Virus record (IMG/VR): IMGVR_UViG_3300012929_000001
Length of the DNA: 64,000 nt
Direction: 5' to 3' (one strand)
From: a virus
The notes beneath the pieces are model-generated. The model did not search any database. It saw only the letters and a program-made list of their open reading frames with translations, and was not told where the DNA came from. The stretch's first letter is position 1, and each line of letters begins with the position of its first letter. Shown here piece by piece: positions 1,042 to 21,535 of this stretch. The translations under genes and the position numbers were made by a program.

Positions 1042-1325
1042 GTAATGTAGGCAGCAATGATGTACCGCTGTATATTCAACGCGGCTTTTATAAGCATGCG
1101 CCTCCGCCCAAATCGCGGATTACGCCCTTAGAATTGGCACAGCTGCTATCGGTAAAGTGCAACGGCGAACGTGTACTCGACGCTCATACTGCCTTTGATA
1201 CGGTCGCTGCCGCACTACCCAAGCTACAACTTATGGACGGAACGCCTGTAACCAGCTTATTCCAAGTGCAAACATTTTTCCGTAAGTTTTCTAAATTCAT
1301 AGATCCTAAGGAGAAGAATGCCTAG
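1038..1325 (+). CDS. Hypothetical protein
   Basis: ATG at 1038 overlaps the polymerase stop (ATGA coupling). The ORF lies in the same operon direction. No motif recognised. Confidence 0.45.
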   Translation: MSNVGSNDVPLYIQRGFYKHAPPPKSRITPLELAQLLSVKCNGERVLDAHTAFDTVAAALPKLQLMDGTPVTSLFQVQTFFRKFSKFIDPKEKNA

Positions 1326-2136
1326 ACCGAGGCTCGTTCAAATTTCTTCCTGGTCGTACAGCCGCTACCAGGATTACGAGAAGTGCCCCCAGCTGGCTAA
1401 ATTTAAGCACGTTGAGAAGCGCCGGGAGCCGGGCAGCGCCGCTTACGCTAAGGGTAACCGCGTGCACGCCCTAGCGCAAGTGTGGGTTACACGTGAAGTG
1501 CCTCCGCTGGACCGGGATAATAAAAATTACCATGCTGAACTGCTGGCCGTCAATAAGAAAGGCGCTCCCATACCCACCGAGCTCTCCACCTTCGAAGAGG
1601 AGTTCACAGAGTTACGGCTTACAAAAGGTAAGGGGGAACAGTCGTGGGGCTTTAAGTCTGACTGGTCGCTTACGCGCTGGGACGACTGGGCGGGCTGCTG
1701 GCTCCGCATCAAAACGGACTTTCACTATATCGTCGTCGAGAAGAAGGGTAAGCTGCGAAGCAGCGACGGCTTTATTATCGACTATAAGACCGGGCGTGAG
1801 TATTCGGAGCATGGCGAGCAGCGCTCGCTGTACGCGCTAGGTATGTTCTTGCTGTACCCCGACCTGCGCTCGGTAACAGCGGCACATTGGTATTTAGAAC
1901 CCGGCTTGGAGCGCCATGATACGTGGCAGGCGAAAGATTTCGAGAAGTTGCGTGAATATTGGGCCAAGCGGACCCGGGCCCTGCTCTCGGATACGACCTT
2001 TGCCCCGCGCCCGACGGCGGAGAACTGTCAGTGGTGCTTCTTCCGCCACACGCCCCACTGCACCGTATGCGGGCGGGGGAATTGCATCTGCCCGAGTGGA
2101 CCACAACTAGCCGAAGGACCGTGCGAACACGGATAG
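1318..2136 (+). CDS. PD-(D/E)XK nuclease, Cas4/RecB-like, with a Cys cluster
   Basis: AAGGAG RBS upstream. IIDYKTG...QRSLYAL matches the D-x-K and QxxxY motifs. One N-terminal Cys (EKCPQL) plus C-terminal CQWCFFRHTPHC resembles the Cas4 Fe-S cysteine pattern. Confidence 0.7.
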   Translation: MPRPRLVQISSWSYSRYQDYEKCPQLAKFKHVEKRREPGSAAYAKGNRVHALAQVWVTREVPPLDRDNKNYHAELLAVNKKGAPIPTELSTFEEEFTELRLTKGKGEQSWGFKSDWSLTRWDDWAGCWLRIKTDFHYIVVEKKGKLRSSDGFIIDYKTGREYSEHGEQRSLYALGMFLLYPDLRSVTAAHWYLEPGLERHDTWQAKDFEKLREYWAKRTRALLSDTTFAPRPTAENCQWCFFRHTPHCTVCGRGNCICPSGPQLAEGPCEHG

Positions 2137-2150
2137 AAAGGAGAAATATT

Positions 2151-2405
2151 GTGGTAGACTGGTATGTAAAAGGGAATACGATCTACGAAGGTCAACGTAT
2201 CGTAGCCATTGCTATCGGTGAAGGCCGAGAAGCTGCCGCCGAGCAGGCGGAAGCGATCGCTATGTTGCACAACAATGCAGAGAGCCTCACAGCGCTTGTC
2301 TGCCCGAACGGTTGCGTCGATCCGGGAAGTCACTATTGTAGGCACTGTGGAAGTGCGTTAACTGCAAAAACAGTTACCGTCGAAAGGCGAAGGATAGAAA
2401 AATGA
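2151..2405 (+). CDS. Small zinc-ribbon-like protein
   Basis: GTG start preceded by GAAAGGAG. The C-terminal CPNGC...CRHCG cysteine pairs suggest a zinc ribbon. The longer 1959 start lies inside the upstream gene. Confidence 0.45.
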   Translation: MVDWYVKGNTIYEGQRIVAIAIGEGREAAAEQAEAIAMLHNNAESLTALVCPNGCVDPGSHYCRHCGSALTAKTVTVERRRIEK

Positions 2406-2974
2406 GTAAGCGATTCTGCACTTTATGTGGCTATGCACTGTGTGGAGAGTTTGGAACTATGCATGAACTCTCAGGGCTGCTATCCTGTCCTCTGCCCGAA
2501 CAGCGCCCACCCGTTGAGCCCACATCTACGTTGACACGTTATGTCGCAGGGTTTATGATGACCCACGATGGGCTGGTCGCACTAGTGCACAAAAATAAGC
2601 CTCCCGCTTTAGCGGGAAGGCTGAACGGTATTGGTGGTAAGATCGAAGCCGACGAGTCGCCCCGACAGGCGATAGTCCGTGAGTTTTATGAAGAAACTAG
2701 TCTGCACATAGATTCGTGGGAATACTTTTGTCTGTTGCATTGTTCGCCTCCGGGTATGGGCGCGTCGGCAGTCTACTTTTTCTATACCTGGCAAACAGCG
2801 CAACTGTTGGCACAACTACAGACGATGGAAACGGAAGAAATCAAGATTGTTCCGGATCGACAGATTAATACCACGACGGCACTTCCCAATGTGCCATGGC
2901 TTTTACGGATGGCTGCTTCGATGCAGGAAGGCGAGCGGGCCGCGTGGTTTGAGGTAACGGAGCATTACGAGTGA
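2402..2974 (+). CDS. Nudix (MutT-like) hydrolase with a Cys-rich N-terminal extension
   Basis: Nudix box GGKIEADESPRQAIVREFYEETSL. ATGA coupling to the upstream ORF. N-terminal CTLCGYALCG. Confidence 0.8.
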   Translation: MSKRFCTLCGYALCGEFGTMHELSGLLSCPLPEQRPPVEPTSTLTRYVAGFMMTHDGLVALVHKNKPPALAGRLNGIGGKIEADESPRQAIVREFYEETSLHIDSWEYFCLLHCSPPGMGASAVYFFYTWQTAQLLAQLQTMETEEIKIVPDRQINTTTALPNVPWLLRMAASMQEGERAAWFEVTEHYE

Positions 2975-3132
2975 GCGATACTATCCACAACGACGCGGAA
3001 GGCTGGTGGTTTTGGGATGAAACCTGGGCGGATCGGCAAGGTCCCTATCCCACGGAGGGGCGGGCGCGGAAGCGGTTAAAAGATTACGCCGAATATCTGA
3101 ATACTGGCATCGACCCGGAAAAAGAAAAATGA
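2971..3132 (+). CDS. Small hypothetical protein (53 aa, below the ORF-track cutoff)
   Basis: GTGA overlap with the Nudix stop and ATGA overlap with the next start, so it fills the gap exactly. Trp-rich peptide VSDTIHNDAEGWWFWDETW... Confidence 0.3.
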   Translation: MSDTIHNDAEGWWFWDETWADRQGPYPTEGRARKRLKDYAEYLNTGIDPEKEK

Positions 3133-3383
3133 GCGTGTACGTGGACGATATGCGTGCGATTTACGGAAGAATGTTCATGTGCCACATGATCGCCGATTCG
3201 CACGAGGAACTGGTAACGATGGCCCGGTCGATCGGCGTCGCGGAGAAGTGGCTACAATGGCGGGGAACGCACCGGGAGCACTTCGACGTCTGTCTTAGTA
3301 AGCGCGTGCTGGCGGTACGGGCGGGAGCCGTAGAGCTGACACAACGGGAATTGGTAAGGAAAATTGTGGAGCGAAAGAAGTGA
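3129..3383 (+). CDS. DUF4031-like protein
   Basis: MSVYVDDMRAIYGRMFMCHMIADSHEEL...HFDVCLSKRVLAVRAGAV matches my recollection of the DUF4031 signature (VYVDD...M.HM.AD...HyD...r..A...GA). Confidence 0.6.
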   Translation: MSVYVDDMRAIYGRMFMCHMIADSHEELVTMARSIGVAEKWLQWRGTHREHFDVCLSKRVLAVRAGAVELTQRELVRKIVERKK

Positions 3384-3562
3384 AAATCTACAGACAGCAT
3401 TGGTTCTGCAAGAATTGTGAAATACAGGTAGAAACGAGAATTGAAACAGGCTTCGAAAAGGCTTTCCGCTGCGCGGAATGTGCCTCGCTAATGCAAGAAA
3501 TATTTTCGCAGTCTGGGGTTCTCTACCGCAAATTGATTATGGACTTCACGAGGGTACGATGA
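3380..3562 (+). CDS. Small zinc-ribbon protein
   Basis: GTGA coupling. CKNC...CAEC cysteine pairs. Confidence 0.4.
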   Translation: MKIYRQHWFCKNCEIQVETRIETGFEKAFRCAECASLMQEIFSQSGVLYRKLIMDFTRVR

Positions 3563-3768
3563 AAAGAAGAATAAAATACAAATTTATGCGCGTATTGGTT
3601 TACTTGCTAATGAAAACTTCAAAAGGCAAACAAATAACGATCGCGTATAGTTGCGATAAGTTCCACACCTTTAATCTAGTCGATGAGAACACGCCGCATT
3701 GGCTGGCCCGTAAAAATAAAGTGTTGCTGACGGCGCATAACTCTATGGATTTGGTACGCTTGAAGTGA
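3559..3768 (+). CDS. Hypothetical protein in an AT-rich islet
   Basis: ATGA coupling at 3559 and GTGA coupling at its 3' end. Its composition is clearly more AT-rich than its neighbours. Confidence 0.35.
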   Translation: MKRRIKYKFMRVLVYLLMKTSKGKQITIAYSCDKFHTFNLVDENTPHWLARKNKVLLTAHNSMDLVRLK

Positions 3769-4130
3769 AAAAGTTGGAACGTGATGTGCAGAAATCGGTG
3801 ACCACGTGGGCGCGGGAGCGCGGGGTGGAGTGTTCCAAGTTGAACACCGACAACGGCTACCCCGACTACATCTTCTGGCTTCCGCTACGCCCGGCGCTAA
3901 TCGAGTTTAAGCGCTCGGGCGCGGAGCCCTCCCCTTTGCAATTACACCGAATCGGAATCTTATTGGAGCTAGGATATGACGTTACCGTCGCAGACACAAA
4001 AGAAAAAGCCGTTGCGTTTATCGAAGAATGTATCCGCGAGCGCTACGAGAACTCGCAAATCCGCCGTCTTAAAAACGGCTCCGCAGTCCTCACCGCGAAA
4101 ACCACACAAGTACCAAAAGCGCGGCGTTGA
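3765..4130 (+). CDS. VRR-NUC domain nuclease
   Basis: GYPDYIFWLP...ALIEFKRSG...LQ fits the PD-(D/E)XK VRR-NUC pattern (D...E-x-K). Confidence 0.7.
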   Translation: MKKLERDVQKSVTTWARERGVECSKLNTDNGYPDYIFWLPLRPALIEFKRSGAEPSPLQLHRIGILLELGYDVTVADTKEKAVAFIEECIRERYENSQIRRLKNGSAVLTAKTTQVPKARR

Positions 4131-5565
4131 GTGGCTAGTGGGCCACGGCGGCGCGGGCATCTTTGCCGCCATCGGCAGCGGGAAGACGGCGGTCGTGCTG
4201 CGGGCGCTGCTGGCGCTGAAGGACGCCGGGCTCTTCCGCCGCGCCCTGGTCGTCGCCCCGCCGCGCGTGATGCGGCAGGTGTGGCCGCGCGAGGCCGCGG
4301 AGTGGGCGGGAACGGAGTGGGAGCGCGTTAAAGAGCTTCGCGTGGTGATGCTGCACGGCGAAGACAAGGACGCGCTGGCTATGCAGGACGCGGATATCTA
4401 CGTCATTAACGCGGAAGGTCTAAAGTGGCTTTTTGAAGATGGTAAATTCAAGCGCTTTAGATGCATGGTAATCGACACGTTCATCGTGGACGAAAGCACC
4501 CTGTTCAAAAACAGGAACACGAAGCGCTTCAAGATGGTGTCCAAGGTCCTGCCCTCCTTCCAGCGCCGCTGGATCATGACGGGGACGCCCAACCCGAACG
4601 GCTACATGAACCTCTTCCCGCAGATTTACCTGATCGACCTGGGGCTGGCGCTCGGGAAGTACGTCACCCGCTTCCGGCAGGAGTACTTCGTGCCCATCAA
4701 CGACTGGGAGTGGCGCTTGCAGGCCGGAGCGGATAAGCGGATTCAAGAGAAAATTGCACCTTACATTTTTCAACTCGATGCCGGCGACTACCGGGAAATC
4801 CCCGTAGAGCCCAACGTCGTGCGCGTGGACCTGCCCCCGGCGGCACGGAAGTTGTACAATAAGATGGAAGAAGAAATGTTGGTTGAGTTGAATAATCAAC
4901 GCTTCGTCGTGGCCGCGAACTCGGGCGCGGCCCATATGAAGTGTGCACAAATTGCCAACGGCGGATTGTATCACATGGTAGGTCCTGGCGGAATTGATTT
5001 TACCAATCTTAGCTTGGGGCAATCCTCTGCGAATACATTCAAAACTTTAAAGCGTACGTGGGAAAACTTGCACGAAGCGAAGACCGACGCCGTCGAGGAG
5101 CTCGTCGAGGAGCTAAACGGCTCGCCCGCGCTCGTCGTCTACGACTTCCTACACGACTTGGACCGCCTACGTAAGCGCTTCCCGCGAGCGCCCTTTATCG
5201 GCGGCGGAGTTTCGCTTAAGGAAAGTGAGCGGCTTTGCGACGCGTGGAACCGGGACGAGTTCCCGGTAATGCTGGTGCAGGCTACCAGCGTAAGCCGGGG
5301 GTTGAACCTGCAACGCGGATCGGCGCAGGACGTAATTTGGCACTCGCTCACCTTCGACCTGGAAGTTTTCCAGCAGCTGAACGGGCGGCTGGCGCGACAG
5401 GGCTCGAAGCATGACCGTATATTCTCACATCTTATTGTAGTCAACGGCACTACCGACGAAGCCCGTTTACGGGCGCTCCGTAGCAAGGACAAAACCCAGC
5501 AGGCATTTTTAGCGGCGCTGCGTGAATACGCGAAAAACCGACAAAAAGGCCGCAAAACCGCATAA
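3976..5565 (+). CDS. SNF2/SWI2-family DEAD-like helicase
   Basis: Q-motif-like HKYQKRGVEWL, motif I AAIGSGKTAV, motif II VDESTLFKN, motif III MTGTPNPNG, motif V ATSVSRGLNLQ, motif VI QLNGRLARQG. The start is uncertain: ATG 3976 or TTG 4012. Confidence 0.85.
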   Translation: MTLPSQTQKKKPLRLSKNVSASATRTRKSAVLKTAPQSSPRKPHKYQKRGVEWLVGHGGAGIFAAIGSGKTAVVLRALLALKDAGLFRRALVVAPPRVMRQVWPREAAEWAGTEWERVKELRVVMLHGEDKDALAMQDADIYVINAEGLKWLFEDGKFKRFRCMVIDTFIVDESTLFKNRNTKRFKMVSKVLPSFQRRWIMTGTPNPNGYMNLFPQIYLIDLGLALGKYVTRFRQEYFVPINDWEWRLQAGADKRIQEKIAPYIFQLDAGDYREIPVEPNVVRVDLPPAARKLYNKMEEEMLVELNNQRFVVAANSGAAHMKCAQIANGGLYHMVGPGGIDFTNLSLGQSSANTFKTLKRTWENLHEAKTDAVEELVEELNGSPALVVYDFLHDLDRLRKRFPRAPFIGGGVSLKESERLCDAWNRDEFPVMLVQATSVSRGLNLQRGSAQDVIWHSLTFDLEVFQQLNGRLARQGSKHDRIFSHLIVVNGTTDEARLRALRSKDKTQQAFLAALREYAKNRQKGRKTA

Positions 5566-5656
5566 AAATAAATGCTTTACAAACCGTAACGGATCGGTTA
5601 TACTGATGTTGTTATGGCGGTCCTTAAAGACGTCCGCTAACGAGGAGCAAGGAAAA

Positions 5657-6010
5657 ATGGCAAAAACACAAGTAGCGACCATCTGGCAAAGCGACCGTAT
5701 CGTGCGCGAGGTCCGTCCGGCGGACGGCAAGAAATTTTCCCTCCGAGAATTGCAGGATGCGGTCGGCGGTACCATTGAGCACGTTCCGCACACCCGCCCG
5801 TTTGCGTACTGCAACGAGGAGGGCCGCTTAATCGGGCTTCCCGTGAACGCGCTCGCCTCCCTCGAATTCCAGCAGATTCTCGTCGGCGACGTGATCCAGG
5901 TGCATACTGAAGTTAAACAAGAAAAACTCAATCCCAATTTGCACAACGAAATACGCCAAATCGGTAAACTCGTTGTGCAGCGTATGAAAGATAGGGTGAC
6001 CCGTGGATAA
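5657..6010 (+). CDS. DUF3846-like protein
   Basis: ATG preceded by GGAGCAAGGAAAA. LRELQDAVGGTIEHV...YCNEEGRLIGLPVN resembles the DUF3846 pattern as I recall it. Confidence 0.5.
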   Translation: MAKTQVATIWQSDRIVREVRPADGKKFSLRELQDAVGGTIEHVPHTRPFAYCNEEGRLIGLPVNALASLEFQQILVGDVIQVHTEVKQEKLNPNLHNEIRQIGKLVVQRMKDRVTRG

Positions 6011-6593
6011 CCAACAGTACCAGGGCAACCTCATCGACAGCCTCACCGCCACGGTCGCCCGCATGGTGCCGAAAAATAGCGGCGCGATTACCGCATATCA
6101 GCTAGGTGTGGTAAACGGCAACCTTTTCACTGATCCGGTAGCGGCCTTGACGTATATCCTCGCCGGAAACGCCTATGTTACGCTACGCAGCCGAGCAACC
6201 GGGACGCGCTATACCTACCGCGTCGCGCTGGCCAAGAAGACAGCGGAGCAGGCGGGGTTGTGGGCCGACGAACGAACAGACCTGCGGCGCTACTTTGTTT
6301 CGCTGCTGACCGGGCCAGAGAACATGGACGACTACTCCTATATCGGACTAGTGGAACAAGCGGGTACAAACCGCCCGACGTTCCGGCTGACGAAGAAGTC
6401 CAAGATGACCCGCGACTCAGCTCCAGTTAAGGCTGTTTCTTGGGCGGTGGAGAAGTTGGCGCTCGGCGTCCTACCAGACTCGCTGGAGGTCTGGCACGAA
6501 GGGCGTTGCGGACGCTGCGGCAGGCCCTTAACCGTACCGGAGTCCATCGCCGCCGGAATCGGTCCAGAGTGTGCTAGTAGGATGGGCCTATGA
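6003..6593 (+). CDS. Protein with a C-terminal DUF6011-like Cys motif
   Basis: C-terminal GRCGRCGRPLTVPESIAAGIGPEC matches the CxxCgRxLtdpeSi..GiGPxC motif I associate with DUF6011. Confidence 0.5.
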   Translation: MDNQQYQGNLIDSLTATVARMVPKNSGAITAYQLGVVNGNLFTDPVAALTYILAGNAYVTLRSRATGTRYTYRVALAKKTAEQAGLWADERTDLRRYFVSLLTGPENMDDYSYIGLVEQAGTNRPTFRLTKKSKMTRDSAPVKAVSWAVEKLALGVLPDSLEVWHEGRCGRCGRPLTVPESIAAGIGPECASRMGL

Positions 6594-6802
6594 CGATCCA
6601 CTGGGATTCCTCCGTGGAAGTCAAGGACGCGGCGGTGGAGCGGCGGGAGTGGCGGTACGACACCATCCTACTGGAACGTTCGCGGCTGAGGCGGCGGCTC
6701 GACTGGCTCCTGGGGGCAACCATCATCATTGCGATGGCGGCAATGGGATGGACGGCGCTTTACCTGGCGGTAACGGCGATCAAGGCGGCGCGGGTGCTGT
6801 AA
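6590..6802 (+). CDS. Small single-pass membrane protein
   Basis: ATGA coupling to the upstream ORF. Hydrophobic helix LLGATIIIAMAAMGWTALYLAV. The competing frame here is Gly/Ala low-complexity. Confidence 0.45.
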   Translation: MTIHWDSSVEVKDAAVERREWRYDTILLERSRLRRRLDWLLGATIIIAMAAMGWTALYLAVTAIKAARVL

Positions 6803-6831
6803 AAACTAGACTTACAATAAAGGAGCTCGAC

Positions 6832-7698
6832 ATGGCAGGAATTAAGTTGAAGAAGCGGAAAGTGAAAGTCCCCAGCGCCCGGGCTGGACGCGTCCTCGCT
6901 GGGCTTGTCCGTGGCAATAAACCCAACGCCGTCGTAAGCGGCCCTCCCCCGCTCGACGAGCAGAAAGCCGCCGCCGCGCCCGTCTGTCCCTGCGGTAAGC
7001 CGGGCTATAAGATACAGGGTATCGACGGTGACTTCTGTAGCGAGGCGTGCTACGAGGAGCACCGCCGCCCTAAGGCTCCGCTGGGCTCCGTAGGGCCAAT
7101 TAATGCCCTAAAGCCCGGGCAGCGGTTCCGCTGCGATATGCCAAAGATGGGCAATGATGGAGGTCACAGTCTTGCGGGTTATCTGGTCTATTGCACAGCA
7201 GGTGGGGCGCTAGTCGAGCTTGACAGTCCGCCCAGCCGCCGTCAGTTTAAGGACGCTCGCAGTGGGGCTGCCGTAGACTTTACTGCCGCTCGCCGGACGC
7301 GCGTAAACTGGTCTTTGCTGACGGAAGTCACTGTTTTGGAAGGAACAAAAGATTTCTCTTTACAATCTGCGAATGATGGAGTACAAAGGTCACGTAGTAC
7401 AAATCTAAACAGCAGGACACCCGAGGAGGGTATCGATATGGCAACCAAGAAAAAGGCAGCAAAGAAGACGAAAGCGAACGGAGAAGCCAAAGGTAAGCGC
7501 GGACGCGCCGGGCAGTTCGGTCCCGAAATGAAGATCAAAGTTCTCGCCGACAAGAACCCCAAGCGCGAAGGGAGCGCCGCCAGTGAGCGTTTCGAGCTCT
7601 ACGGCAAGAACAAGACGGTGGAGTCTTTCCTGGCAGCCGGGGGCAGCAGCCGCGACCTGGCTTACGACGTTACGCACGGTCACGTCGAAGTCAAGTAA
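6832..7698 (+). CDS. Hypothetical protein with a Cys motif and a Lys-rich internal segment
   Basis: AAAGGAG RBS before ATG 6832. CPCG...CSEAC motif. An in-frame internal GGAGG+ATG sits at 7438 (MATKKKAAKK...). The gene is followed by a terminator hairpin. Confidence 0.5.
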   Translation: MAGIKLKKRKVKVPSARAGRVLAGLVRGNKPNAVVSGPPPLDEQKAAAAPVCPCGKPGYKIQGIDGDFCSEACYEEHRRPKAPLGSVGPINALKPGQRFRCDMPKMGNDGGHSLAGYLVYCTAGGALVELDSPPSRRQFKDARSGAAVDFTAARRTRVNWSLLTEVTVLEGTKDFSLQSANDGVQRSRSTNLNSRTPEEGIDMATKKKAAKKTKANGEAKGKRGRAGQFGPEMKIKVLADKNPKREGSAASERFELYGKNKTVESFLAAGGSSRDLAYDVTHGHVEVK

Positions 7699-7726
7699 GC
7701 AGGTCCTCCCGGTAAAAAGCTGTAGG

Positions 7727-7756
7727 CCCTCCGGTCTTACGACCGGAGGGATTTTA
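7727..7756 (+). terminator. Rho-independent terminator candidate
   Basis: 10-bp perfect stem CCCTCCGGTC/GACCGGAGGG with loop TTAC, followed by ATTTTA, 29 nt after the stop at 7698. Confidence 0.55.
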
Positions 7757-7771
7757 ACACTGGAGACGTTT

Positions 7772-9517
7772 GTGGAATTCCAAATAAAAGTCCGCGAGCT
7801 TACCGAACTGTTAAAGCGGACTGGCAACAAGAACGAGAAAATCCGCGAAGCTATTCGCTATAAGAACGAGGACTCGCGGACCACGCTGGCCACTACCGTC
7901 TTCGCGCCCGGGGAGCTTAAGACGCTAGCCGCCGTAATCGACGCCCGGCTAGCGGAGGCACCGACCGATCGGCATAATAAATGGGTAAAGGGTCGCTTAC
8001 GCGCTTACTTCGAATTGTTCGAAGGCAAGGTTAGTTCCGCGACAAAGGTTAAGAACCTACAAATGCTTCCCATTGCCATTCAACGTTACCTGGAAGAATC
8101 TGCACCGCATCGTTGGATTTTCCGAGAGAATAGCGACCACATCCTGCTCCCCTATCTAGTTACGGATATTAAGTACTTTAAGCGCCGCCGCGAACGTGGA
8201 GGGTATGTCTACCCGGCCTACGTGAAAATAGATTTTCTTGGTTACAAGAACGGCTCTCGAGAAAGCGAAAGCGCGAGCATTGATGAGGACGCGTTTACGC
8301 CGACTACAGTTCCTAAGATTTTCGAGCAGCTCGGACTTAGTCATGAAACGCCCGCTGCTGTAGCAGAATACACGGCGTCGTTGGAAACCTATGGAGTTTA
8401 CCAGAATGCTTGTGGCGTCCAGGCATTGGCTATCGGAGTGGGCTTCGGTATACAACTTAGCCGTTGGCAATCTCGTTACAGCCAGGTGGAAATGGTCCGT
8501 AACGGTCAGGCGACAAAAGTAGTTCTTGACCCGCGAACCGAGGAGCTTGAAGACAATAAGGGTGATGACGAGCCCCGCTTCTACACAGTTAATTTCTGGG
8601 AAGACGTACCCGACCGTAACGGCCTAACCGCGCGGGGCATTGAACTCGATGAAGACGAGGATGAAGACGAGGATGAAGACGATCCAGACGAGCCGGAGAA
8701 GCCGAAACTCGAAGTTATGCTCCCGCTGCATCCTTATTTGTACTGCTTCGATCTGGACACTCATAGCTGGATTAACCTGCACGCCGCTAACCTACAACCG
8801 TACGATTGGGATAAAACGCTATTACAAAAGTTGATCTTACCGCAAGAGCAGAAAGACCTACTACAAATTCTCATCAGTTCCAGCGGGCACTCCATCGAAG
8901 ACATTGTACGCGGCAAAATGAGCGGTGTAATCGTCTTGGCTACGGGAGCGCCCGGCACGGGTAAGACGCTTACCGCAGAAGTGTTCTCGGAGTACATTGA
9001 GAAGCCGCTCTACAACGTGCAGTGTTCCCAGCTAGGTCTTAGCGTCGACACCATCGAAAGCAACCTACAAGAGATTCTCCAGCGGGCGTCACGATGGGGC
9101 GCAGTCCTACTCATTGACGAATCCGACGTTTACATCCGTAACCGGGGCGAGGACATAACCCAAAACGCAATTGTGGGTGTGTTCTTGCGGCTGCTCGAAT
9201 ACTACCGGGGCGTTCTGTTTATGACTAGCAATCGCGGGAATATCGTTGACGATGCCATTCTCTCGCGAGCCACAGCCTGGATTCAATACCAACTACCCTC
9301 CGCCGAGCTTCTCGCTACAATCTGGAGCGTGCTGTGCCGGCAATATCGTGTGGAGTTGAAAACGAAAGAAATTGCACAGCTAGTAAAAGAGCTTCCCAAC
9401 ATCAGCGGGCGTTCTGTACGCAACATTCTTAAGCTGGCAACAATGTTGAAGAAAGAGAAAGCTACGGTTGCTGACATCATTAACGTGAGTAAGTATCAAG
9501 CCTTGGAGCAAAAGTGA
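7772..9517 (+). CDS. AAA+ ATPase with a large unknown N-terminal domain and an acidic linker
   Basis: Walker A GAPGTGKT, Walker B LLIDESD, classical AAA second region of homology (SRATAW...). Start taken as the first GTG after the terminator, but CTG 7760 is possible. DEDEDEDEDEDD tract at ~8640-8700. Confidence 0.8.
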   Translation: MEFQIKVRELTELLKRTGNKNEKIREAIRYKNEDSRTTLATTVFAPGELKTLAAVIDARLAEAPTDRHNKWVKGRLRAYFELFEGKVSSATKVKNLQMLPIAIQRYLEESAPHRWIFRENSDHILLPYLVTDIKYFKRRRERGGYVYPAYVKIDFLGYKNGSRESESASIDEDAFTPTTVPKIFEQLGLSHETPAAVAEYTASLETYGVYQNACGVQALAIGVGFGIQLSRWQSRYSQVEMVRNGQATKVVLDPRTEELEDNKGDDEPRFYTVNFWEDVPDRNGLTARGIELDEDEDEDEDEDDPDEPEKPKLEVMLPLHPYLYCFDLDTHSWINLHAANLQPYDWDKTLLQKLILPQEQKDLLQILISSSGHSIEDIVRGKMSGVIVLATGAPGTGKTLTAEVFSEYIEKPLYNVQCSQLGLSVDTIESNLQEILQRASRWGAVLLIDESDVYIRNRGEDITQNAIVGVFLRLLEYYRGVLFMTSNRGNIVDDAILSRATAWIQYQLPSAELLATIWSVLCRQYRVELKTKEIAQLVKELPNISGRSVRNILKLATMLKKEKATVADIINVSKYQALEQK

Positions 9518-10338
9518 AAAACTCGCTCGAACTCTTTATTCCGAGCACGGGCCGCGCGGCGCTGCAGACCACTATCTTCGCACTGCCGGAACCCTGGCAA
9601 CGGGTTACCACGGTCGTCGTCTACGCCCACGAGCGCCGGGCGTACGTGGAAACGGTACCGCCCTGGGTTACGGTAAAAGCCGTTCCGGAGCGCGTGCAAC
9701 GCATCGGTATGAAGCGACAATGGATAGTGGAACAAGCGCAAGGGCCTAAGATCTGTATGCTCGACGACGATCTCGAGCTATTAGTCCGCCGCTCCGACGA
9801 ACCTGCGCACTTTTTAGCCGCGAGCACTACCGACGTCGGCGAAATGCTAGAAACTATCGAGCGGACACTATCTGCTCGAATCCCCCACGTCGGCGTCTGT
9901 CCCCGCGAAGGCGGTAACCGCATGTTGGAGGACGGATACTGTATGCGCATGTGTCGCGTATTGGCCTACCACATGAGCACACTGCGCGGGAGTGCTGCTC
10001 GTTTCGACCGTAACCCACCCATGGAAGACTTCGACATGACATTGCAGCTGCTACGGCTGGGGCACCCCAATAAGGTGCTCCACCTGTGGGCCCACGGACA
10101 ACGCGGTAGCAACACTATCGGCGGCTGTAGCGGTTACCGTACGCTTAAGGTACAGGCCGAGACGGCTCGGCGCTTGGCCCGACTGCACCCCGGCTTCGTT
10201 AAAGCTGTACAGAAGACCACCAAAACAGCGTGGGGCGGCGCAACGCGGACGGACGTAGTTGTGCAATGGAAAAAAGCCTATCTCAGCAGTGGAAAGGCGC
10301 TAAAGCGTGAGAACGACGGAATTCTTTCAATTTATTAA
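9514..10338 (+). CDS. Putative GT-A-fold nucleotide-sugar transferase (D-D-D motif); function uncertain
   Basis: GTGA coupling to the AAA+ gene. A beta-alpha-beta-like N-terminus followed by KICMLDDDLEL (DxD-type motif). It resembles phage DNA-glycosyltransferase-like GT-A proteins, from memory only. Confidence 0.45.
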   Translation: MKNSLELFIPSTGRAALQTTIFALPEPWQRVTTVVVYAHERRAYVETVPPWVTVKAVPERVQRIGMKRQWIVEQAQGPKICMLDDDLELLVRRSDEPAHFLAASTTDVGEMLETIERTLSARIPHVGVCPREGGNRMLEDGYCMRMCRVLAYHMSTLRGSAARFDRNPPMEDFDMTLQLLRLGHPNKVLHLWAHGQRGSNTIGGCSGYRTLKVQAETARRLARLHPGFVKAVQKTTKTAWGGATRTDVVVQWKKAYLSSGKALKRENDGILSIY

Positions 10339-11167
10339 AGTCCGCCACGCTATCTGGGTCTGTCGGGAGCGTGGTGAACCCGCGCCCTGGACGGAAGACC
10401 CAATTTTACAGAAGTTCCGTTTTTGCAATGTTTACAGGGAGCTTGACAAGGTAACAATCTGGATTCGGGAACACTGGCGTACGCCGCACGCGACGGACCC
10501 CGATCTGTGGTTCGCATTAACAGTGGCTCGCTTCTTCAACTTACCGGCGACGCTCGCGACGCTTGGATATCCGGTACCCTACCGCCCAGCGGAGCTCCGA
10601 AAGCGACTTAAGAAGCTAACCCCGCCCGTCTTTAACGCGGCGTATATGGTCCGCTCGGACCCGGGCGATAAAATCGACTATGTACTTAATGCCGTGTTGG
10701 CGCCGATGTGGAAAGCAAGAAAAGATATTTGGGCCGTAATTAACAATGAAACACTCGGCACTATTCCCCCGCCTACGCTCGCCGATATACACAGTGTACT
10801 TTCCCAATATTACGGCATGGGTAGCTTTATGGCCGCGCAAGTAATCGCGGATCTTAAGTACGTAGCACCGCTTAACCGAGCCAAAGACTGGTGGACGTGG
10901 GCTGCGCCCGGGCCGGGTAGCATGCGGGGTCTGAATCGAGTGTGCGGATATCCTACAGAACATCCCTGGAAAGACGGGCAGGTAAATCATTGGCTTTCTA
11001 CGTTGCAAAAATTACAATCGGAGTTGGCCCCGCTTTTACAAAAAGTAGGGATGCCACGTATGTGTGCACAAAATACCCAGAACGCATGTTGCGAGTTCGA
11101 CAAGTATGAACGCGCTCGCACGGGCGAAGGTCGACCGAAACAACTTTATCGAGGAAGTGGGATATGA
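10307..11167 (+). CDS. aGPT-Pplase-like protein (alpha-glutamyl/putrescinyl thymine pyrophosphorylase family), tentative
   Basis: N-terminal FIKVRHAIWVCRERGEPAPWTEDPILQKFRFCNVYRELDKVTIWI matches the PWT.D.IL...RFCNV.RE.D+VT signature I recall for this phage family. No HMM run. Confidence 0.5.
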   Translation: MRTTEFFQFIKVRHAIWVCRERGEPAPWTEDPILQKFRFCNVYRELDKVTIWIREHWRTPHATDPDLWFALTVARFFNLPATLATLGYPVPYRPAELRKRLKKLTPPVFNAAYMVRSDPGDKIDYVLNAVLAPMWKARKDIWAVINNETLGTIPPPTLADIHSVLSQYYGMGSFMAAQVIADLKYVAPLNRAKDWWTWAAPGPGSMRGLNRVCGYPTEHPWKDGQVNHWLSTLQKLQSELAPLLQKVGMPRMCAQNTQNACCEFDKYERARTGEGRPKQLYRGSGI

Positions 11168-11194
11168 CAAAGCAAGAACGAATGAAAGGAAAAT

Positions 11195-12274
11195 ATGGAA
11201 TTAAAGTGTCGTAACGTGAACGCAGCTCTTGCCGACGGTATCATGTACCTTCGTACGTCCGGCATCACACAAACTTCTCGCAACGGCCCGGTGTTGGTTG
11301 CACCAGAGCCAGTCCTTACCGTTTACCGCAAGCCTCAGGAACGAGTGCTGTTTTCGCCACGGCGAGATGCTAACCCCTTTTTCCATTTAATGGAAGCGCT
11401 CTGGATGCTCGCCGGGCGGAACGACTTAGCCTGGCCCTTGTACTTTAACTCCAAGTTCGGAGCTTACTCGGACGACGGTGTTACCGTGCACGGTGCATAC
11501 GGCGACCGCTGGCGCGTGGGAATGGGCTTCGATCAACTTATCCCCATTGCGAATGAGCTGAAGAATAACCCGGAAAGTCGACGTTGTATATTGCAGATGT
11601 GGGATGCAACGCAGGAAGCCGGGCAGTATAACGATCTGTACAAAGCAATCGGCGGTGGAAAAGATGTACCCTGCAACACACACGTCTATTTTCTCGTGCA
11701 GGATGGTGGTACGTTGGATATGACCGTATGCTGCCGCTCCAACGATATTATCCTCGGCGCGTACGGAGCCAACGCCGTACACATGTCGATCCTGCAAGAG
11801 TACGTCGCCGCCCGGGCGGGCTATGCGATCGGTACATATCGACAATTCTCGAACAATTACCACTTGTACACGCGCGACTTCGAAGCGCATTCCGATGGCC
11901 CGGACTGGGCACTTTGGCAATTGGCGCAGGACGTGGAAACCTCAAATCGCTATGAAGACGGTATTCCGCCGTCGCGCGTAATTAACATTGACAATGTTGA
12001 TGAGTGGGACGAAGAACTGAGTAATTTTTTCCGGCTGTGTGATTCTAACGCTTCAGGCAAACTAGATTGGTCAAAATTCACTGATCAATTTTTTACACAG
12101 TGCGCACTGCCGATGTACGCGGCGTGGACGGAACGGAAAGAAAAGCGAGGAACGGGGCTCGCAGCACTAGAACCTATGCAAACGGCTTATCGGGACTGGT
12201 ACGCGGCCTGTAAAGAATGGATCGAACGCCGGGAGCTAAGAAATATGAAACTCGTTGCGCCCGCCGGATCGTAG
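11195..12274 (+). CDS. Thymidylate synthase (ThyA) superfamily enzyme, either a deoxypyrimidine hydroxymethylase or a divergent TS, with a ~110-aa C-terminal extension
   Basis: NPESRRCILQMWD, catalytic-Cys context DVPCNTHVYFLV, and CRSNDIILGAYGAN (compare QRSxDxxLGxPFN in ThyA). AAAGGAAAA RBS. Confidence 0.8.
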   Translation: MELKCRNVNAALADGIMYLRTSGITQTSRNGPVLVAPEPVLTVYRKPQERVLFSPRRDANPFFHLMEALWMLAGRNDLAWPLYFNSKFGAYSDDGVTVHGAYGDRWRVGMGFDQLIPIANELKNNPESRRCILQMWDATQEAGQYNDLYKAIGGGKDVPCNTHVYFLVQDGGTLDMTVCCRSNDIILGAYGANAVHMSILQEYVAARAGYAIGTYRQFSNNYHLYTRDFEAHSDGPDWALWQLAQDVETSNRYEDGIPPSRVINIDNVDEWDEELSNFFRLCDSNASGKLDWSKFTDQFFTQCALPMYAAWTERKEKRGTGLAALEPMQTAYRDWYAACKEWIERRELRNMKLVAPAGS

Positions 12275-12443
12275 GCTGGACGAAGTTCTCCACGCCGTGC
12301 ACTTAATCGATATTTGTCTGCGCGTAGACCGGGGCGAGCGCTGTGGGGCGCATAAAAAGGTCGGCAACGACCTAGGCCCAATGATTGGGGTAATGGATTG
12401 GACGGTCGAGCTTCACCGATTATTGAACGGAGGACAGACGGCA

Positions 12444-12863
12444 ATGAAAGAATTGAAAGAAGATTTACGAGTAAAGGATCCTAACCGTAGACAGGTCGGA
12501 GGCATGCATTACGGCGGAGGTACATACCAACATTGGGATCTTATGATCGACACGATAGGTCCCGGGTACCTGGTCGGCTGTGCTACAAAGTATCTAGCTC
12601 GCGCGAAGAACCCATTGCAGGATACGGATAAAGCGATCCACTACATTGAGAAATTAGAATCACTTTACGCGCCCGGTGGTAAACTGTACGGACAACTTCC
12701 CCCGGCGCGAAGCCGAGCGGGATGGTACGCGTACTGTAAGGAAAACTGCCCGACGCAGGCGCAACAGGATATCTTCTTGCTCTTACTGGGCTATACGACG
12801 CTGGAAGAGGTCCGTACGGCGAAGCGGTTGACAATGGCATACCGGAATGCACTAACCCGTTAA
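12444..12863 (+). CDS. DUF3310-like protein
   Basis: GGAGGA RBS. HYGGGTYQHWDLMID...GCATKYLARAKN...DTDKAIHYIEKL matches the DUF3310 pattern (hY...KYl.R...K...Dl.KA.hYl). Confidence 0.55.
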   Translation: MKELKEDLRVKDPNRRQVGGMHYGGGTYQHWDLMIDTIGPGYLVGCATKYLARAKNPLQDTDKAIHYIEKLESLYAPGGKLYGQLPPARSRAGWYAYCKENCPTQAQQDIFLLLLGYTTLEEVRTAKRLTMAYRNALTR

Positions 12864-12986
12864 AATGTACTACTTTGTATTTTATCGACAGCGTTGGGAA
12901 GACTGTATGTTAACGTTCGCGCAGCGTATACTAGCTCAGCCGGGCGAGCTTACGTCCGAGAATGTGCAGGAATTGGAGGCGATAGG

Positions 12987-13313
12987 ATGGGCGCTCGAAG
13001 AAATATGCTCAGCCCCGAGCCGCTTTCCCAGCGGGCCATAACCGAGCTGCTTTCGATAAGAGAATTTCTCGGGCTCTGCGGCGCGATGGACGAGCGGTGC
13101 GGAAGAACGCTGGCGGCGGTCACGGCGCTGGGTGGGCCGCTGACAGGCATGGGCGGTGGGCAGTACCAAATCGCCGCCCGCAACCTGGGCGGCGTAAGGT
13201 TCGACGTGCTCCACGTGGACCGCGACGAGGGCGGGAAGCTCGTTTCCGTCCTCGTAAGTGCGGAGGACGACGGGCTGTTGAGAATCAATTACGAAAACGG
13301 AGAATTAAAATGA
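12987..13313 (+). CDS. Hypothetical protein
   Basis: ATG preceded by TTGGAGG. Alternative starts exist at 12894 (TTG) and 13005. A competing 43-aa ORF (12907-13038, another frame) also looks protein-like. Confidence 0.4.
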   Translation: MGARRNMLSPEPLSQRAITELLSIREFLGLCGAMDERCGRTLAAVTALGGPLTGMGGGQYQIAARNLGGVRFDVLHVDRDEGGKLVSVLVSAEDDGLLRINYENGELK

Positions 13314-13687
13314 AAATAGTAGACCGAATCGGGTCTTACATGTTAGAAGCTTTACTGTGCTTAGCTGTAGTAGGCTTCGTATTCGCCGAGACTGCCATAA
13401 CAACACTAACATTGCCCGAGGTCGTGCAGCTACGCATCCAGAACGCCTATAAAGACGCCATGCTGGCTTCGGCGGAAGTGCAGCGCGTACAAGCGGCGGT
13501 CATCGCTGCCTCCCCCGACTGCCAAACTGCAACCAAGGCATTCCAAAAAACCGTGGACGACTATAACGCTCTGCTCGCGAAAGAGGCTGCCGACGCCAAA
13601 TTACCCAAGGGCGCGACTATTGTTTATGACCCAACAACAAAGATTGCCAGTGTGAAGCAGCCGCCGTCAGAGCCAGTAAAGAAGTAG
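13310..13687 (+). CDS. Membrane-anchored or secreted small protein
   Basis: ATGA coupling. N-terminal hydrophobic segment MLEALLCLAVVGFVFA followed by a helical Ala/Lys-rich region. Confidence 0.5.
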   Translation: MKIVDRIGSYMLEALLCLAVVGFVFAETAITTLTLPEVVQLRIQNAYKDAMLASAEVQRVQAAVIAASPDCQTATKAFQKTVDDYNALLAKEAADAKLPKGATIVYDPTTKIASVKQPPSEPVKK

Positions 13688-13857
13688 AATTTGCGCGACG
13701 CTTTGCGTTGCGTCCCGCTCGCGCGCACCCGCGCAAAGGGTAGCTGGAGGAACGGCAAGTTCCCAAGAGTAGCGGCTGATCACCGTGAAGGGTTACGGTG
13801 CACCCTTAGACCAGCACAACCACTCAGCGAGCGGAACGGAACGCAAAGGAAATTAAA

Positions 13858-14016
13858 ATGACCGACAAATTTAACTACTTCCCCGTCTGCGCCGCCTGTG
13901 GCTTGGGCAATCTCGCGCTGATGCCACGGGTTACACTGGAAGAGCCAATCCGAGCTTTTTGTGTTGGCTGCCAGGAGCAGGTGTTGCTGACGGAGGTTCG
14001 ATACGAGAAGCGATAA
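13858..14016 (+). CDS. Small zinc-ribbon protein (52 aa, below the ORF-track cutoff)
   Basis: AAAGGAAATTAAAATG. Two CxxC pairs (CAAC, CVGC). Confidence 0.35.
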   Translation: MTDKFNYFPVCAACGLGNLALMPRVTLEEPIRAFCVGCQEQVLLTEVRYEKR

Positions 14017-14086: not shown

Positions 14087-14389
14087 GTGGACTTCCGAAT
14101 TTACCGCATTTGGGGCAGTACATTGCCGCCAGAAAGTGCACCCGTCTATTTGGATCGCTACGGTAATGGTGTAAATGTTACGGAGAACATAGTGCAAGCT
14201 GCTGTGTTTGCGCACGGCACGGTAAAGTGCGACGGCTGCTCGGACTGGCATTTCGACGCGCAAGAAGAAAACAACGCCGACGCCTTGCACGGCTGCACGC
14301 GAAAAGACCTCACCAATATCGGTGAGGTCCTGGCGGCAGCGTGGGACTCAGCGAAGAGCCTACTTGTCGATGTATGGACTGGCGGTTAA
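14087..14389 (+). CDS. Hypothetical protein (last gene of the plus-strand block)
   Basis: GTG-start ORF. It converges tail-to-tail with the minus-strand protease gene, overlapping by 4 nt. Confidence 0.4.
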   Translation: MDFRIYRIWGSTLPPESAPVYLDRYGNGVNVTENIVQAAVFAHGTVKCDGCSDWHFDAQEENNADALHGCTRKDLTNIGEVLAAAWDSAKSLLVDVWTGG

Positions 14390-15204
14390 ATCCAGGGGTG
14401 CCCCGAGTGCACAATCTTAAGGTCCGTATCCGGCGCGTCGAAGTACGCCACGGGCATCCAGCAGAACCCCCCGAGGCCCCATCCGTTGCCCCAGGAGTTC
14501 TGGATCAGAAAGGCAGCCGGGCAGTTCTGCGGTCGAATAGTTGGCATCCGACCAACATCGTACCCCAGGCAGAGTACCTCATGCCCGCCCAGCACCCGCT
14601 CGCCCCGCTGCGGTAGCGGAACGACGCCCGAATTGGCCACGGCATCGGACTCGAAGGAAGCGTACACGGTAAAGCCAACCTCCACGGGCCAAGGCGTCGA
14701 ATCACCCAGCACACTCTGTGCCACGGCACTTCCGGCGACGCCGTGGTACGCGCCCATACCGTAGTGTTTCGCCGCCGCTTCTTGCGTCGAAGTGGGCCGC
14801 GCGATCCGACCCGCAACGTACGGGTAGCTCGCTTCCGGACAACTGCCCTTGAAGATCAGCGTCTCGCAAAGTGTAGTCCCGTCCGATCCGGCGTCGTCCG
14901 CCGCATAGCCTTCAGGGAAACTACCCTGCCTGATCAACTCCTGCGCGTAGACGTACTGCGGGGACAAGACGGGCTCGGTGTGCAGGTAGCGGCGAAAGAT
15001 CCATTCCACGGCGCTGGTCCCGGCGTGGGCGGTGCAGCTGCCCTCGTCGCCCTGGTTCTTCACGGGCCCGGCGTTCGGGCGAAGATCAACGGCGGGCGGG
15101 AGGTTGGGCACCACGCGGCGGAGCATACGGTGCAAGGGTAAGGGTGGCGGTGCGGAGCGGCCATAACGACGTCCAGCAGGACTAACGGGTAAAACGGGAG
15201 GCAT
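14386..15204 (-). CDS. Papain-like cysteine peptidase (family C1)
   Basis: Full catalytic signature: NQGDEGSCTAHAG (Gln/Cys), GGHEVLCLGYD (His), IQNSWGNGWG (Asn-Ser-Trp). Confidence 0.8.
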   Translation of the reverse strand: MPPVLPVSPAGRRYGRSAPPPLPLHRMLRRVVPNLPPAVDLRPNAGPVKNQGDEGSCTAHAGTSAVEWIFRRYLHTEPVLSPQYVYAQELIRQGSFPEGYAADDAGSDGTTLCETLIFKGSCPEASYPYVAGRIARPTSTQEAAAKHYGMGAYHGVAGSAVAQSVLGDSTPWPVEVGFTVYASFESDAVANSGVVPLPQRGERVLGGHEVLCLGYDVGRMPTIRPQNCPAAFLIQNSWGNGWGLGGFCWMPVAYFDAPDTDLKIVHSGHPWI

Positions 15205-21534: not shown

Positions 21535-21535
21535 T

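Follow-up and report, generated by a model that had tools for sequence, protein, structure and literature searches.

Organization of the Locus

Within a 64,000-nt window (the whole stretch of DNA analyzed, taken from IMG/VR virus record IMGVR_UViG_3300012929_000001), four consecutive plus-strand genes, designated ORF1 to ORF4 in their order along that strand, form a candidate module for the hypermodification of thymidine. They encode a GT-A glycosyltransferase of the TAGT family, a standalone clade-1 alpha-glutamyl/putrescinyl thymine pyrophosphorylase (aGPT-Pplase; the clade-1 protein is referred to below as Pplase1), a homolog of thymidylate synthase (ThyA), and a small, divergent DUF3310-family protein. 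An earlier note, made from the sequence alone, had proposed that a ThyA paralog, a GT-A enzyme and an aGPT-Pplase-type protein make up a hypermodification module here without the P-loop 5-hydroxymethyldeoxyuridine (5-hmdU) DNA kinase (HMUDK), a proposal that the family assignments support. The four ORFs were present where the note had placed them, the gene caller used on the source contig predicts the same four genes, and the motifs quoted for them were recovered (CMLDDDLEL in ORF1, PWTEDPILQKFRFCNVYRELDKVT in ORF2, PCN and CRSND in ORF3). The genes, with the AAA+ ATPase gene that precedes them, are as follows.

7772..9517, plus strand: AAA+ ATPase, 581 aa as called on the contig (PF00004 AAA, E = 1.4e-13; phrog_29662, E = 2.4e-92)
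9514..10338, plus strand: TAGT-family GT-A glycosyltransferase, ORF1, 274 aa (PF20691; phrog_842)
10307..11167, plus strand: clade-1 aGPT-Pplase, ORF2, standalone, 286 aa (PF18723 'HMUDK_hel'; phrog_2396)
11195..12274, plus strand: ThyA-superfamily enzyme, ORF3, predicted dUMP 5-hydroxymethyltransferase, 359 aa (PF00303; phrog_5131)
12444..12863, plus strand: DUF3310-family small protein, ORF4, 139 aa (phrog_5839, E = 1.5e-17)

The source contig (ERZ27253148:k141_3948130) is 72,580 bp long and its ends overlap by the assembler's k (141). Since the 64,000-bp window and the remaining 8,439 bp (L005:13262-21700) sum to 72,580 minus 141, the genome appears to be circular and complete at ~72.4 kb. 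Position 1 of the window lies 950 nt inside a family-A DNA polymerase gene, and the module sits within a block of replication and nucleotide-metabolism genes.

ORF3 and the Base Affected

ORF3 matched the Thymidylat_synt family (PF00303, E = 7.1e-18) and phrog_5131 (E = 5.7e-105), in keeping with its earlier assignment to the ThyA superfamily. The ~110-aa C-terminal extension remarked on at that time is real but not peculiar to this protein, as phage M6 gp58 and PhiJL001 gp24 align with ORF3 residues 3-346 and are 44-45% identical to it over 96% of its length, extension included. Alignments with PDB sequences placed ORF3 Cys160 at the catalytic Cys146 of E. coli ThyA and Asn193 at E. coli N177. 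In ThyA and dCMP hydroxymethylase the N177 position, together with D179, selects uracil vs. cytosine, and cytosine-specific enzymes have Asp; the CMP hydroxymethylase MilA has Asp where ORF3 has Asn193. The Cys, Arg, Asp, and Asn residues at the four key ThyA positions were invariant in 75 homologs from related loci, whatever their gene neighbors. In phage M6, ~30% of T is replaced by 5-NedU, which derives from 5-hmdU (PMC5889632, PMC8989533). Because ORF3 carries the uracil-type Asn193 and belongs with the M6 clade, the base affected should be T and not C, which narrows the choice between the two that had been offered before. ORF3 is most probably a dUMP hydroxymethyltransferase making 5-hmdUMP, a product assigned only from its 44% identity to M6 gp58 and its gene context.

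ORF1, a Predicted DNA Glycosyltransferase

The GT-A likeness first read from the ORF1 sequence was borne out by profile searches, in which ORF1 matched the Pfam TAGT family (PF20691, E = 5.6e-19; 69.3 bits, gathering cut-off 27.5) and, over residues 1-257, phrog_842, annotated as 'beta-glucosyl-HMC-alpha-glucosyltransferase' (E = 7.4e-43). ORF1 has all of the residues conserved in 90% or more of 42 homologs (R14, R68, D84-D85-D86, R131, E171-D172-F173, and GGCS at 203-206). The active-site signature R...DDD...ED[Y/F], described for phage GT-A DNA glycosyltransferases (bioRxiv 10.1101/2023.12.21.572611), is thus complete (R68, D84-D85-D86, E171-D172-F173). In the same report, GT-A genes adjoining ThyS homologs were catalogued at metagenome scale, and models of the phage GT-A enzymes were found to match the base-J glucosyltransferase (JGT) of T. 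cruzi structurally at a sequence identity of only ~9%. Of 753 phage genomes that encode a GT, 288 carry a solitary TAGT (PMC13216743), and phage T-dioxygenases are often linked to GTs. The T2/T6 beta-glucosyl-HMC-alpha-glucosyltransferase and the TET-associated GT-A enzymes (Burke 2021, Pyle 2023/2024) belong to the same PF20691 family as ORF1 and share its active-site signature; they act on 5-hydroxymethylcytosine (5-hmC) or glucosyl-5-hmC, whereas the acceptor predicted for ORF1 is 5-hydroxymethyluracil (5-hmU).

ORF1 is 37% identical to PhiJL001 gp22 and 41% identical to a glucosyl transferase of phage genome MW202897, its closest TAGT in the phage database. MW202897 is a complete, circular 40-kb genome that has TAGT, ThyA, HD, and DUF3310 genes and neither Pplase1 nor a kinase, which indicates that the TAGT does not need Pplase1. 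We predict that ORF1 glycosylates DNA at the 5-hydroxymethyl group of 5-hmU, an acceptor suggested by the uracil-specific Asn of the linked ThyA homolog.

Searches for Kinase, ADDT, and Other Pathway Genes

The earlier note had seen no P-loop kinase in the window, an observation that we confirmed and extended to the whole genome. When M6 and PhiJL001 proteins were used as tblastn queries against the window and the 8.4-kb remainder, just the Pplase1, TAGT, and ThyA genes were recovered; no genes matched the M6 kinase gp54, the clade-2 amino-acid:DNA transferase (ADDT) gp51, the pyridoxal-phosphate (PLP) enzyme, the radical SAM enzyme, Nmad5, the HD hydrolase, or dCMP deaminase. A scan for Walker-A motifs found in-gene motifs only in an SNF2 helicase and the AAA+ protein. 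Among the ten largest ORFs of the remainder, Pfam searches recognized nothing but a HAD_PNKP phosphatase and an Rv2179c-like exonuclease; its other genes are listed in the gene table with no further Pfam matches, and mid-window ORFs encoded tail and lysis proteins. Unfiltered (--max) hidden Markov models (HMMs) built from 24 kinases and five ADDTs gave nothing below E = 0.18 on all 681 ORFs. In sum, no P-loop 5-hmdU DNA kinase, ADDT, Nmad5, HD hydrolase, PLP enzyme, or radical SAM enzyme was found in the ~72.4-kb genome. A methyltransferase, TET, alpha-GT, and beta-GT were likewise absent. The only candidates for dTTP or dTMP clearance were a NUDIX hydrolase (window 2402-2974) and, outside the window, the HAD_PNKP-type phosphatase (L005:19067-19507).

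These results bear on the earlier suggestion that the hydroxymethylated base is "glycosylated or aminoacylated." A sugar is favored, and aminoacylation is unsupported, as no ADDT was found at any threshold and the clade-1 protein of M6, gp55, is dispensable in the reconstituted reaction of the kinase with gp51 (PMC8989533).

Recurrence of the Module in Other Phages

Eighty IMG/VR loci carrying Pplase1 were annotated with iterative local HMMs over +/-10 kb around each gene. The partners of Pplase1 were distributed as follows.

TAGT and ThyA: 31 of 80 loci
TAGT only: 2 of 80 loci
ThyA and HMUDK: 15 of 80 loci
ThyA, HMUDK, and ADDT: 4 of 80 loci
ThyA only: 20 of 80 loci
None of TAGT, ThyA, HMUDK, and ADDT: 8 of 80 loci

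None of the 80 loci held both TAGT, found in 33, and HMUDK, found in 19 (Fisher p = 7e-6, without correction for phylogeny), an exclusivity on which the literature searched, which did not cover Iyer et al. (2013), makes no comment. In a neighbor-joining tree of Pplase1 the TAGT-type and kinase-type loci were interleaved, which argues for many independent exchanges of one partner for the other. The TAGT, Pplase1, and ThyA genes were mostly adjacent, with a median start-to-start distance of ~1.1-1.3 kb and a varying order, and the other conserved neighbors were replication genes (PD-(D/E)XK nuclease, Pol A, UvrD helicase, and primase). An ADDT gene lay within 10 kb in only 5 of 20 kinase-type loci. 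No ORF of the surveyed loci carried a TAGT-Pplase1 or kinase-Pplase1 domain fusion.

The trio of TAGT, Pplase1, and ThyA was also found in two close metagenomic relatives, and three cultured phages, PhiJL001, LuckyBarnes, and phiRSL1, carry it in clustered form. PhiJL001 (Keylargovirus) encodes Pplase1 (gp19), TAGT (gp22), Nmad5, ThyA (gp24), HD, and DUF3310 proteins; it differs from the present phage in the addition of Nmad5, the HD hydrolase, and dCMP deaminase, and neither a kinase nor ADDT was found in its first 50 kb. In Brevibacterium phage LuckyBarnes, a ThyA homolog (517 aa), two TAGTs, and Pplase1 are encoded by consecutive genes, no kinase was found in 50.0 of its 50.8 kb, and no ADDT was detected. 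The Ralstonia jumbo phage phiRSL1 has a nine-gene cluster (L094, 157980-176744) that includes Pplase1 (ORF231) and ThyA as well as three TAGTs, an NDP-sugar pyrophosphorylase, a nucleotidyltransferase, a galactose-3-O-sulfotransferase-like gene, and an APS-kinase-like gene whose product matched the HMUDK model marginally (E = 0.004). The phiRSL1 cluster hints at a sulfated oligosaccharide on thymine. The extra TAGTs, NDP-sugar enzymes, and sulfotransferase of phiRSL1 and the second TAGT of LuckyBarnes suggest that glycans are the end products. No published DNA chemistry for these three phages was found in the literature searched. The kinase-less TAGT arrangement is therefore not unique to this genome but a recurrent module in several phage lineages.

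A characterized relative is the M6/YuA-type cluster (PMC5889632, PMC8989533), in which M6 encodes ADDT, PLP, radical SAM, HMUDK, Pplase1, Nmad5, ThyA, HD, and DUF3310 proteins. Its ThyA-clade enzyme is 44% identical to ORF3, and its standalone clade-1 Pplase, gp55, is 36% identical to ORF2. In both phages a DUF3310-like gene comes after ThyA, and the cluster belongs to the replication module of a genome of siphovirus size. HMUDK (gp54), ADDT (gp51), the PLP decarboxylase, the radical SAM isomerase, Nmad5, and the HD hydrolase of M6 have no counterparts that we could find here, where a TAGT glycosyltransferase takes the place of the kinase-route enzymes.

A SPASM/radical-SAM gene was a third recurrent partner of Pplase1 and ThyA in the 80 loci, where it occurred alone in seven, with TAGT in four, and with the kinase in two (L009:8420-9289, L014, L015, L018, L020, L025, L034, L037, L045, L050, and L068). 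Its presence suggests further uncharacterized thymidine chemistries.

ORF2, a Clade-1 aGPT-Pplase

ORF2 matched PF18723 (E = 6.9e-42; 144.2 bits, cut-off 25), with residues 5-273 aligned to positions 6-277 of the 281-position profile, and phrog_2396 (E = 2.6e-56); it is 36% identical to M6 gp55 and has 1,771 database homologs, many of them on ~70-kb contigs. GenBank labels homologs 'aGPT-Pplase1' or 'alpha-glutamyl/putrescinyl thymine pyrophosphorylase clade 1.' The aGPT-Pplase signature recognized in the earlier note was thus correct under the former name of a family that Pfam now calls HMUDK_hel. The fusion of kinase and Pplase in phage SP10 (PMC5889632) probably gave PF18723 that name. Here, despite the name, the protein has no P-loop kinase partner, and a kinase is present in only 19 of the 80 related loci; the link to a kinase comes from the name and does not define the family in sequence. 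The note had also spoken of an aGPT-Pplase-type transferase. The family assignment stands, but ORF2 belongs to clade 1 and not to clade 2, the ADDT family (PF18724) proven to be an amino-acid:DNA transferase. As ORF2 did not match PF18724 at E <= 1 and profiles of the two clades were not joined, it is not to be filed as an ADDT.

An AlphaFold2 model of ORF2 (pLDDT 94.2, pTM 0.91) was all-helical and resembled HhH glycosylases. In BFVD it matched the clade-1 proteins of phiRSL1 (TM 0.87) and PhiW-14 (gp72, TM 0.73) and the 637-aa SP10 kinase-Pplase fusion (TM 0.78, E = 1e-8), so that the structural comparison agrees with the family assignment. Models of ADDT domains in BFVD were more distant (TM 0.51-0.62, best E = 4.9e-3). 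Among solved structures searched with Foldseek, the PaMx11 ADDT (8z2m) ranked first at E = 0.66, followed by HhH-type folds, and no match was significant. The Pplase1 family profile aligned by hhalign with M6 gp51 at E = 0.052 and with a five-sequence ADDT profile at E = 0.065, and a profile search of PDB sequences with the family found nothing. ADDTs have a catalytic Cys and, close to it in the C-terminal helix, an essential Glu. Inspection by eye showed a likeness between their catalytic segment, NIQEVETVLCKWKSH, and AQDLQNCLCEFDKYE of Pplase1 (QEVETVLCKW in ADDT, QDLQNCLCEF in Pplase1, at a similar distance from the GxG...AD motif), a likeness that an alignment program did not recover; GFGPWIGFKIADM and GMGSFMAAQVIADL are also alike, with similar spacing.

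Thirteen Pplase1 residues (R13, F39, R44, D47, N78, Y113, F174, D182, G202, G204, C262, E263, and K266) were invariant across 90 sequences except for one that was gapped; N41 differed in one of the 90 and P203 in at most four, and all of these residues are present in ORF2. The pattern makes Pplase1 look like an enzyme and not a passive helical domain. Core residues were the same in TAGT-type, kinase-type, ThyA-only, and orphan loci. A proposed loss of the ADDT metal site in ORF2 (E-T to Q-N) was dropped, since 21 of the 90 homologs have E-H at these positions.

Closely related copies of Pplase1 sit in loci of the kinase type, of the TAGT type, and of neither type, which argues for a substrate common to all contexts; this is most likely 5-hmU in DNA and not a phosphorylated or glycosylated intermediate. 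We favor a role in which Pplase1 processes or selects 5-hmU that was left without hypermodification (for example, by converting 5-hmdU to thymidine) or presents a flipped 5-hmU to its partner enzyme. The enzyme that turns 5-hmdU into thymidine in such phages was stated to be unknown by Lee et al. (2018, PMC5889632), who found aG/PT-PPlases only in the thymidine-hypermodifying phages among seven genomes compared and noted homologs elsewhere.

Orphan copies occur in bacterial contigs. A clade-1 Pplase 52% identical to ORF2 lies at L010:10001-10918 and L011:10001-10918 (contigs of 322 and 188 kb) without ThyA, TAGT, or kinase. The small element that holds it also encodes a phage-type integrase and an AAA_25 protein and is flanked by bacterial housekeeping genes. 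Similar orphan loci are L017 and L021-L023, on contigs of 31-463 kb. The aGPT-Pplase domain is among the unvalidated defense domains predicted by DefensePredictor (PMC13092281).

ORF4, a DUF3310-Family Protein

The ATG at 12444, which yields a 139-aa protein, is preceded by a GGAGGA Shine-Dalgarno sequence 9 nt upstream and was also chosen by the contig gene caller; it is most likely the start of ORF4, in place of the TTG at 12255 (202 aa) given before. The DUF3310 likeness reported for the protein holds at the family level. Alone, ORF4 matched DUF3310 (PF11753) at E = 0.015-0.03 with 15.7 bits, below the threshold of 24, but 21 of the 22 aligned members of its family matched at E <= 0.01 (best 1.4e-9). 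An alignment of the family shows 16 invariant positions, many of which are polar. BLASTP of ORF4 against T7 gp1.7 found nothing, and hhalign of the family with gp1.7 aligned just 40 columns (E = 0.0023; gp1.7 residues 149-188), which correspond to the DUF3310 core; the N-terminal two thirds of gp1.7 have no counterpart. A DUF3310 gene lay directly downstream of ThyA or ThyA-HD in 13 of the 33 loci with TAGT and 12 of the 19 with the kinase. It is plausible, although weakly supported, that ORF4 is a nucleotide-level enzyme such as a 5-hmdUMP kinase like T7 gp1.7. As a replacement for the DNA kinase it was rejected, because DUF3310 co-occurs with HMUDK in those 12 of 19 kinase-type loci.

Between the ThyA stop codon and the ORF4 start lie 170 nt that contain a hairpin at 12358-12373 with a perfect 6-bp stem and a GCAA loop (AGGTCG-GCAA-CGACCT), preceded by a run of A. 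It was scored as terminator-like on the minus strand, yet no minus-strand gene ends there, and a scan of promoters and terminators showed no enrichment over shuffled sequences.

Proposed Pathway and Alternative Explanations

The reading that we judge to be moderately probable is a variant of the 5-hmdU thymidine-hypermodification pathway that works through a glycosyltransferase and needs no DNA kinase, with Pplase1 acting on 5-hmU DNA. In this scheme, based on homology, ORF3 would convert dUMP to 5-hydroxymethyl-dUMP, which would be raised to the triphosphate, possibly with the help of ORF4, and incorporated in place of T by the phage's own family-A DNA polymerase. With a host NDP-sugar as donor, ORF1 would then glycosylate the hydroxymethyl group of 5-hmU directly in DNA, as its family membership and genomic linkage suggest, to give a base-J-like O-glycosyl-5-hmU. 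ORF2, with a putative ADDT-like fold and invariant Cys262-Glu263, is a candidate for a further step on 5-hmU DNA. The modification may serve to evade host restriction. The predicted end product is, as in the base-J system of kinetoplastids (JBP1/2 and JGT), an O-glycosylated 5-hmU made by a GT-A enzyme; there, T is oxidized in DNA by JBP, whereas here a ThyA paralog would supply 5-hmU ahead of replication, and the genome has no TET/JBP gene. That the chemistry differs from described pathways, as the earlier note had surmised, is reasonable but unproven.

Several points weigh against this pathway. The literature search found no DNA chemistry reported for any phage with this gene set. The best-known TAGT, that of T2/T6, attaches not the first sugar but a second glucose, on a base that carries one already (PMC13216743). 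Sequence alone cannot tell a hydroxymethylase from a methylase in ORF3. No dTTP-excluding enzyme was identified in the genome, which lacks the HD hydrolase and dCMP deaminase that M6 and PhiJL001 have. The likeness of Pplase1 to ADDT is weak in sequence (hhalign E = 0.065) and not significant against the crystal structure 8z2m (E = 0.66), and the role proposed for Pplase1 is one that we only infer. Finally, the co-occurrence statistics are uncorrected for phylogeny and limited to +/-10 kb around each gene.

A more specific form of the pathway, which we hold to be rather unlikely as a whole, couples a base-J-like glycosyl-5-hmU made by ThyA and TAGT to a Pplase1 that would turn the non-hypermodified 5-hmdU back into thymidine through attack of Cys262 at C6. 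Action on an unactivated 5-hmU would explain why Pplase1 lies beside ThyA in kinase-, sugar-, and radical-SAM-type loci alike.

Alternatively, and in our estimation quite unlikely, glycosylation could replace phosphorylation as the activating step. The TAGT would add a sugar or sugar-phosphate, and the Pplase1 Cys would attack C6 and swap in an amine, amino acid, or hydride, so that the final base would not be a glycoside. Such a scheme would fit the mutual exclusion of TAGT and HMUDK as Pplase1 partners, the invariant Cys of Pplase1 in an ADDT-like motif, and the resemblance of its model to those of ADDT domains; with a recognizable ADDT in so few kinase-type loci, Pplase1 may itself be the transferase in those. 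However, an O-glycoside is a poor leaving group in comparison with phosphate. MW202897 has TAGT and ThyA without Pplase1, and the several TAGTs and sugar-tailoring genes of phiRSL1 and LuckyBarnes make sense only if the glycan stays on the DNA. In addition, Pplase1 proteins of the two classes are interleaved and identical in their core, which would not be expected if their leaving groups differed, and M6 gp55 is dispensable in vitro (PMC8989533).

We consider it very unlikely that the standard kinase pathway operates here by means of an unrecognized non-P-loop kinase, either ORF4 or the AAA+ protein, with Pplase1 as the group transferase and the TAGT adding a sugar afterward. In its favor are the nucleotide-kinase annotation of T7 gp1.7, a DUF3310 protein; the many polar residues that are invariant in the ORF4 family; and the translational coupling of the AAA+ gene to ORF1. 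Against this, the occurrence of DUF3310 in both kinase-type and TAGT-type loci shows that it is no substitute for HMUDK, and the ORF4 family matches only the ~40-residue DUF3310 core of gp1.7; the AAA+ gene is not conserved with the module, and ADDT was not found in the genome.

Little credence is likewise given to the view that ORF3 is an ordinary thymidylate synthase and that the GT acts on a cell-envelope polymer or a protein, leaving the DNA canonical. Beyond the difficulty of separating methylases from hydroxymethylases by sequence, this view draws on the resemblance of GT-A enzymes to TarP-type wall teichoic acid transferases and on the ~65% of metagenomic GT matches that are not beside a base-modification gene (bioRxiv 10.1101/2023.12.21.572611). 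It accounts poorly for the tight and repeated adjacency of TAGT to an M6-clade ThyA homolog and Pplase1, for the location of the module in a replication and nucleotide-metabolism block, and for the restriction of aG/PT-PPlases to thymidine-hypermodifying phages among the seven genomes compared, with homologs noted elsewhere (PMC5889632). A T-even-like cytosine pathway, in which ORF3 would be a dCMP hydroxymethylase and the TAGT would glycosylate 5-hmC, can be set aside as extremely improbable: TAGT was first known from the 5-hmC DNA of T2/T6 and the best PDB sequence match of ORF3 is MilA (E = 6.8e-19), but ORF3 and all 75 homologs have Asn where MilA has Asp, the closest characterized phage relative, M6, modifies T, and Pplase1 is a family of thymidine pathways.

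Implications

In every thymidine hypermodification that has been reconstituted biochemically, a P-loop kinase phosphorylates 5-hmdU in DNA and a clade-2 transferase then displaces the phosphate. The present genome and a considerable number of relatives keep the putative 5-hmdU-making enzyme and the clade-1 paralog, with the kinase exchanged for a GT-A glycosyltransferase. The arrangement predicts a sugar-modified thymine in bacterial viruses, an analog of base J, of which no demonstration was found in the literature searched, and it provides a kinase-free and ADDT-free genetic setting in which to assign the function of the clade-1 protein. The prediction is directly testable in the three cultured phages that carry the gene set, PhiJL001, LuckyBarnes, and phiRSL1. 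Modifications of this kind bear on the evasion of restriction and CRISPR, on sequencing artifacts, and on enzyme tools for labeling DNA.

Neighboring Genes

The stop codon of the AAA+ gene overlaps the start of ORF1 in a GTGA (GTG at 9514-9516, TGA at 9515-9517). The coupling described earlier is therefore real, but it is local and not conserved with the module: among the surveyed loci, homologs of the AAA+ protein were found only on the same source contig. Since they are not kept elsewhere, the AAA+ ATPase is probably a neighbor and not part of the conserved module. The longest reading of its ORF starts at 7583. In this 644-aa reading, a long acidic linker, DEDEDEDEDEDDPDEPE, at residues ~340-375 (window 8600-8700) separates an unannotated N-terminal half of ~380 aa from the ATPase domain. 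The corresponding PHROG family, phrog_29662, is labeled 'ATP-dependent protease.'

Upstream of the module, genes for DUF3846 and DUF6011 proteins come after that for an SNF2-family helicase (window 3976-6593), and the SNF2-DUF6011 pair was seen again in the relative L009. Downstream, a papain-family cysteine protease gene (Peptidase_C1) at 14386-15204 on the minus strand adjoins a VanY/M15 peptidase gene where the minus-strand late region begins; the relative L012 has a Peptidase_C1 gene in the same place, and such a gene is an unusual part for a phage lysis or structural region. The G+C content is 0.52-0.59 in the early, replication, and modification region (1-14000) vs. 0.64-0.66 in the tail-fiber region (20000-26000).

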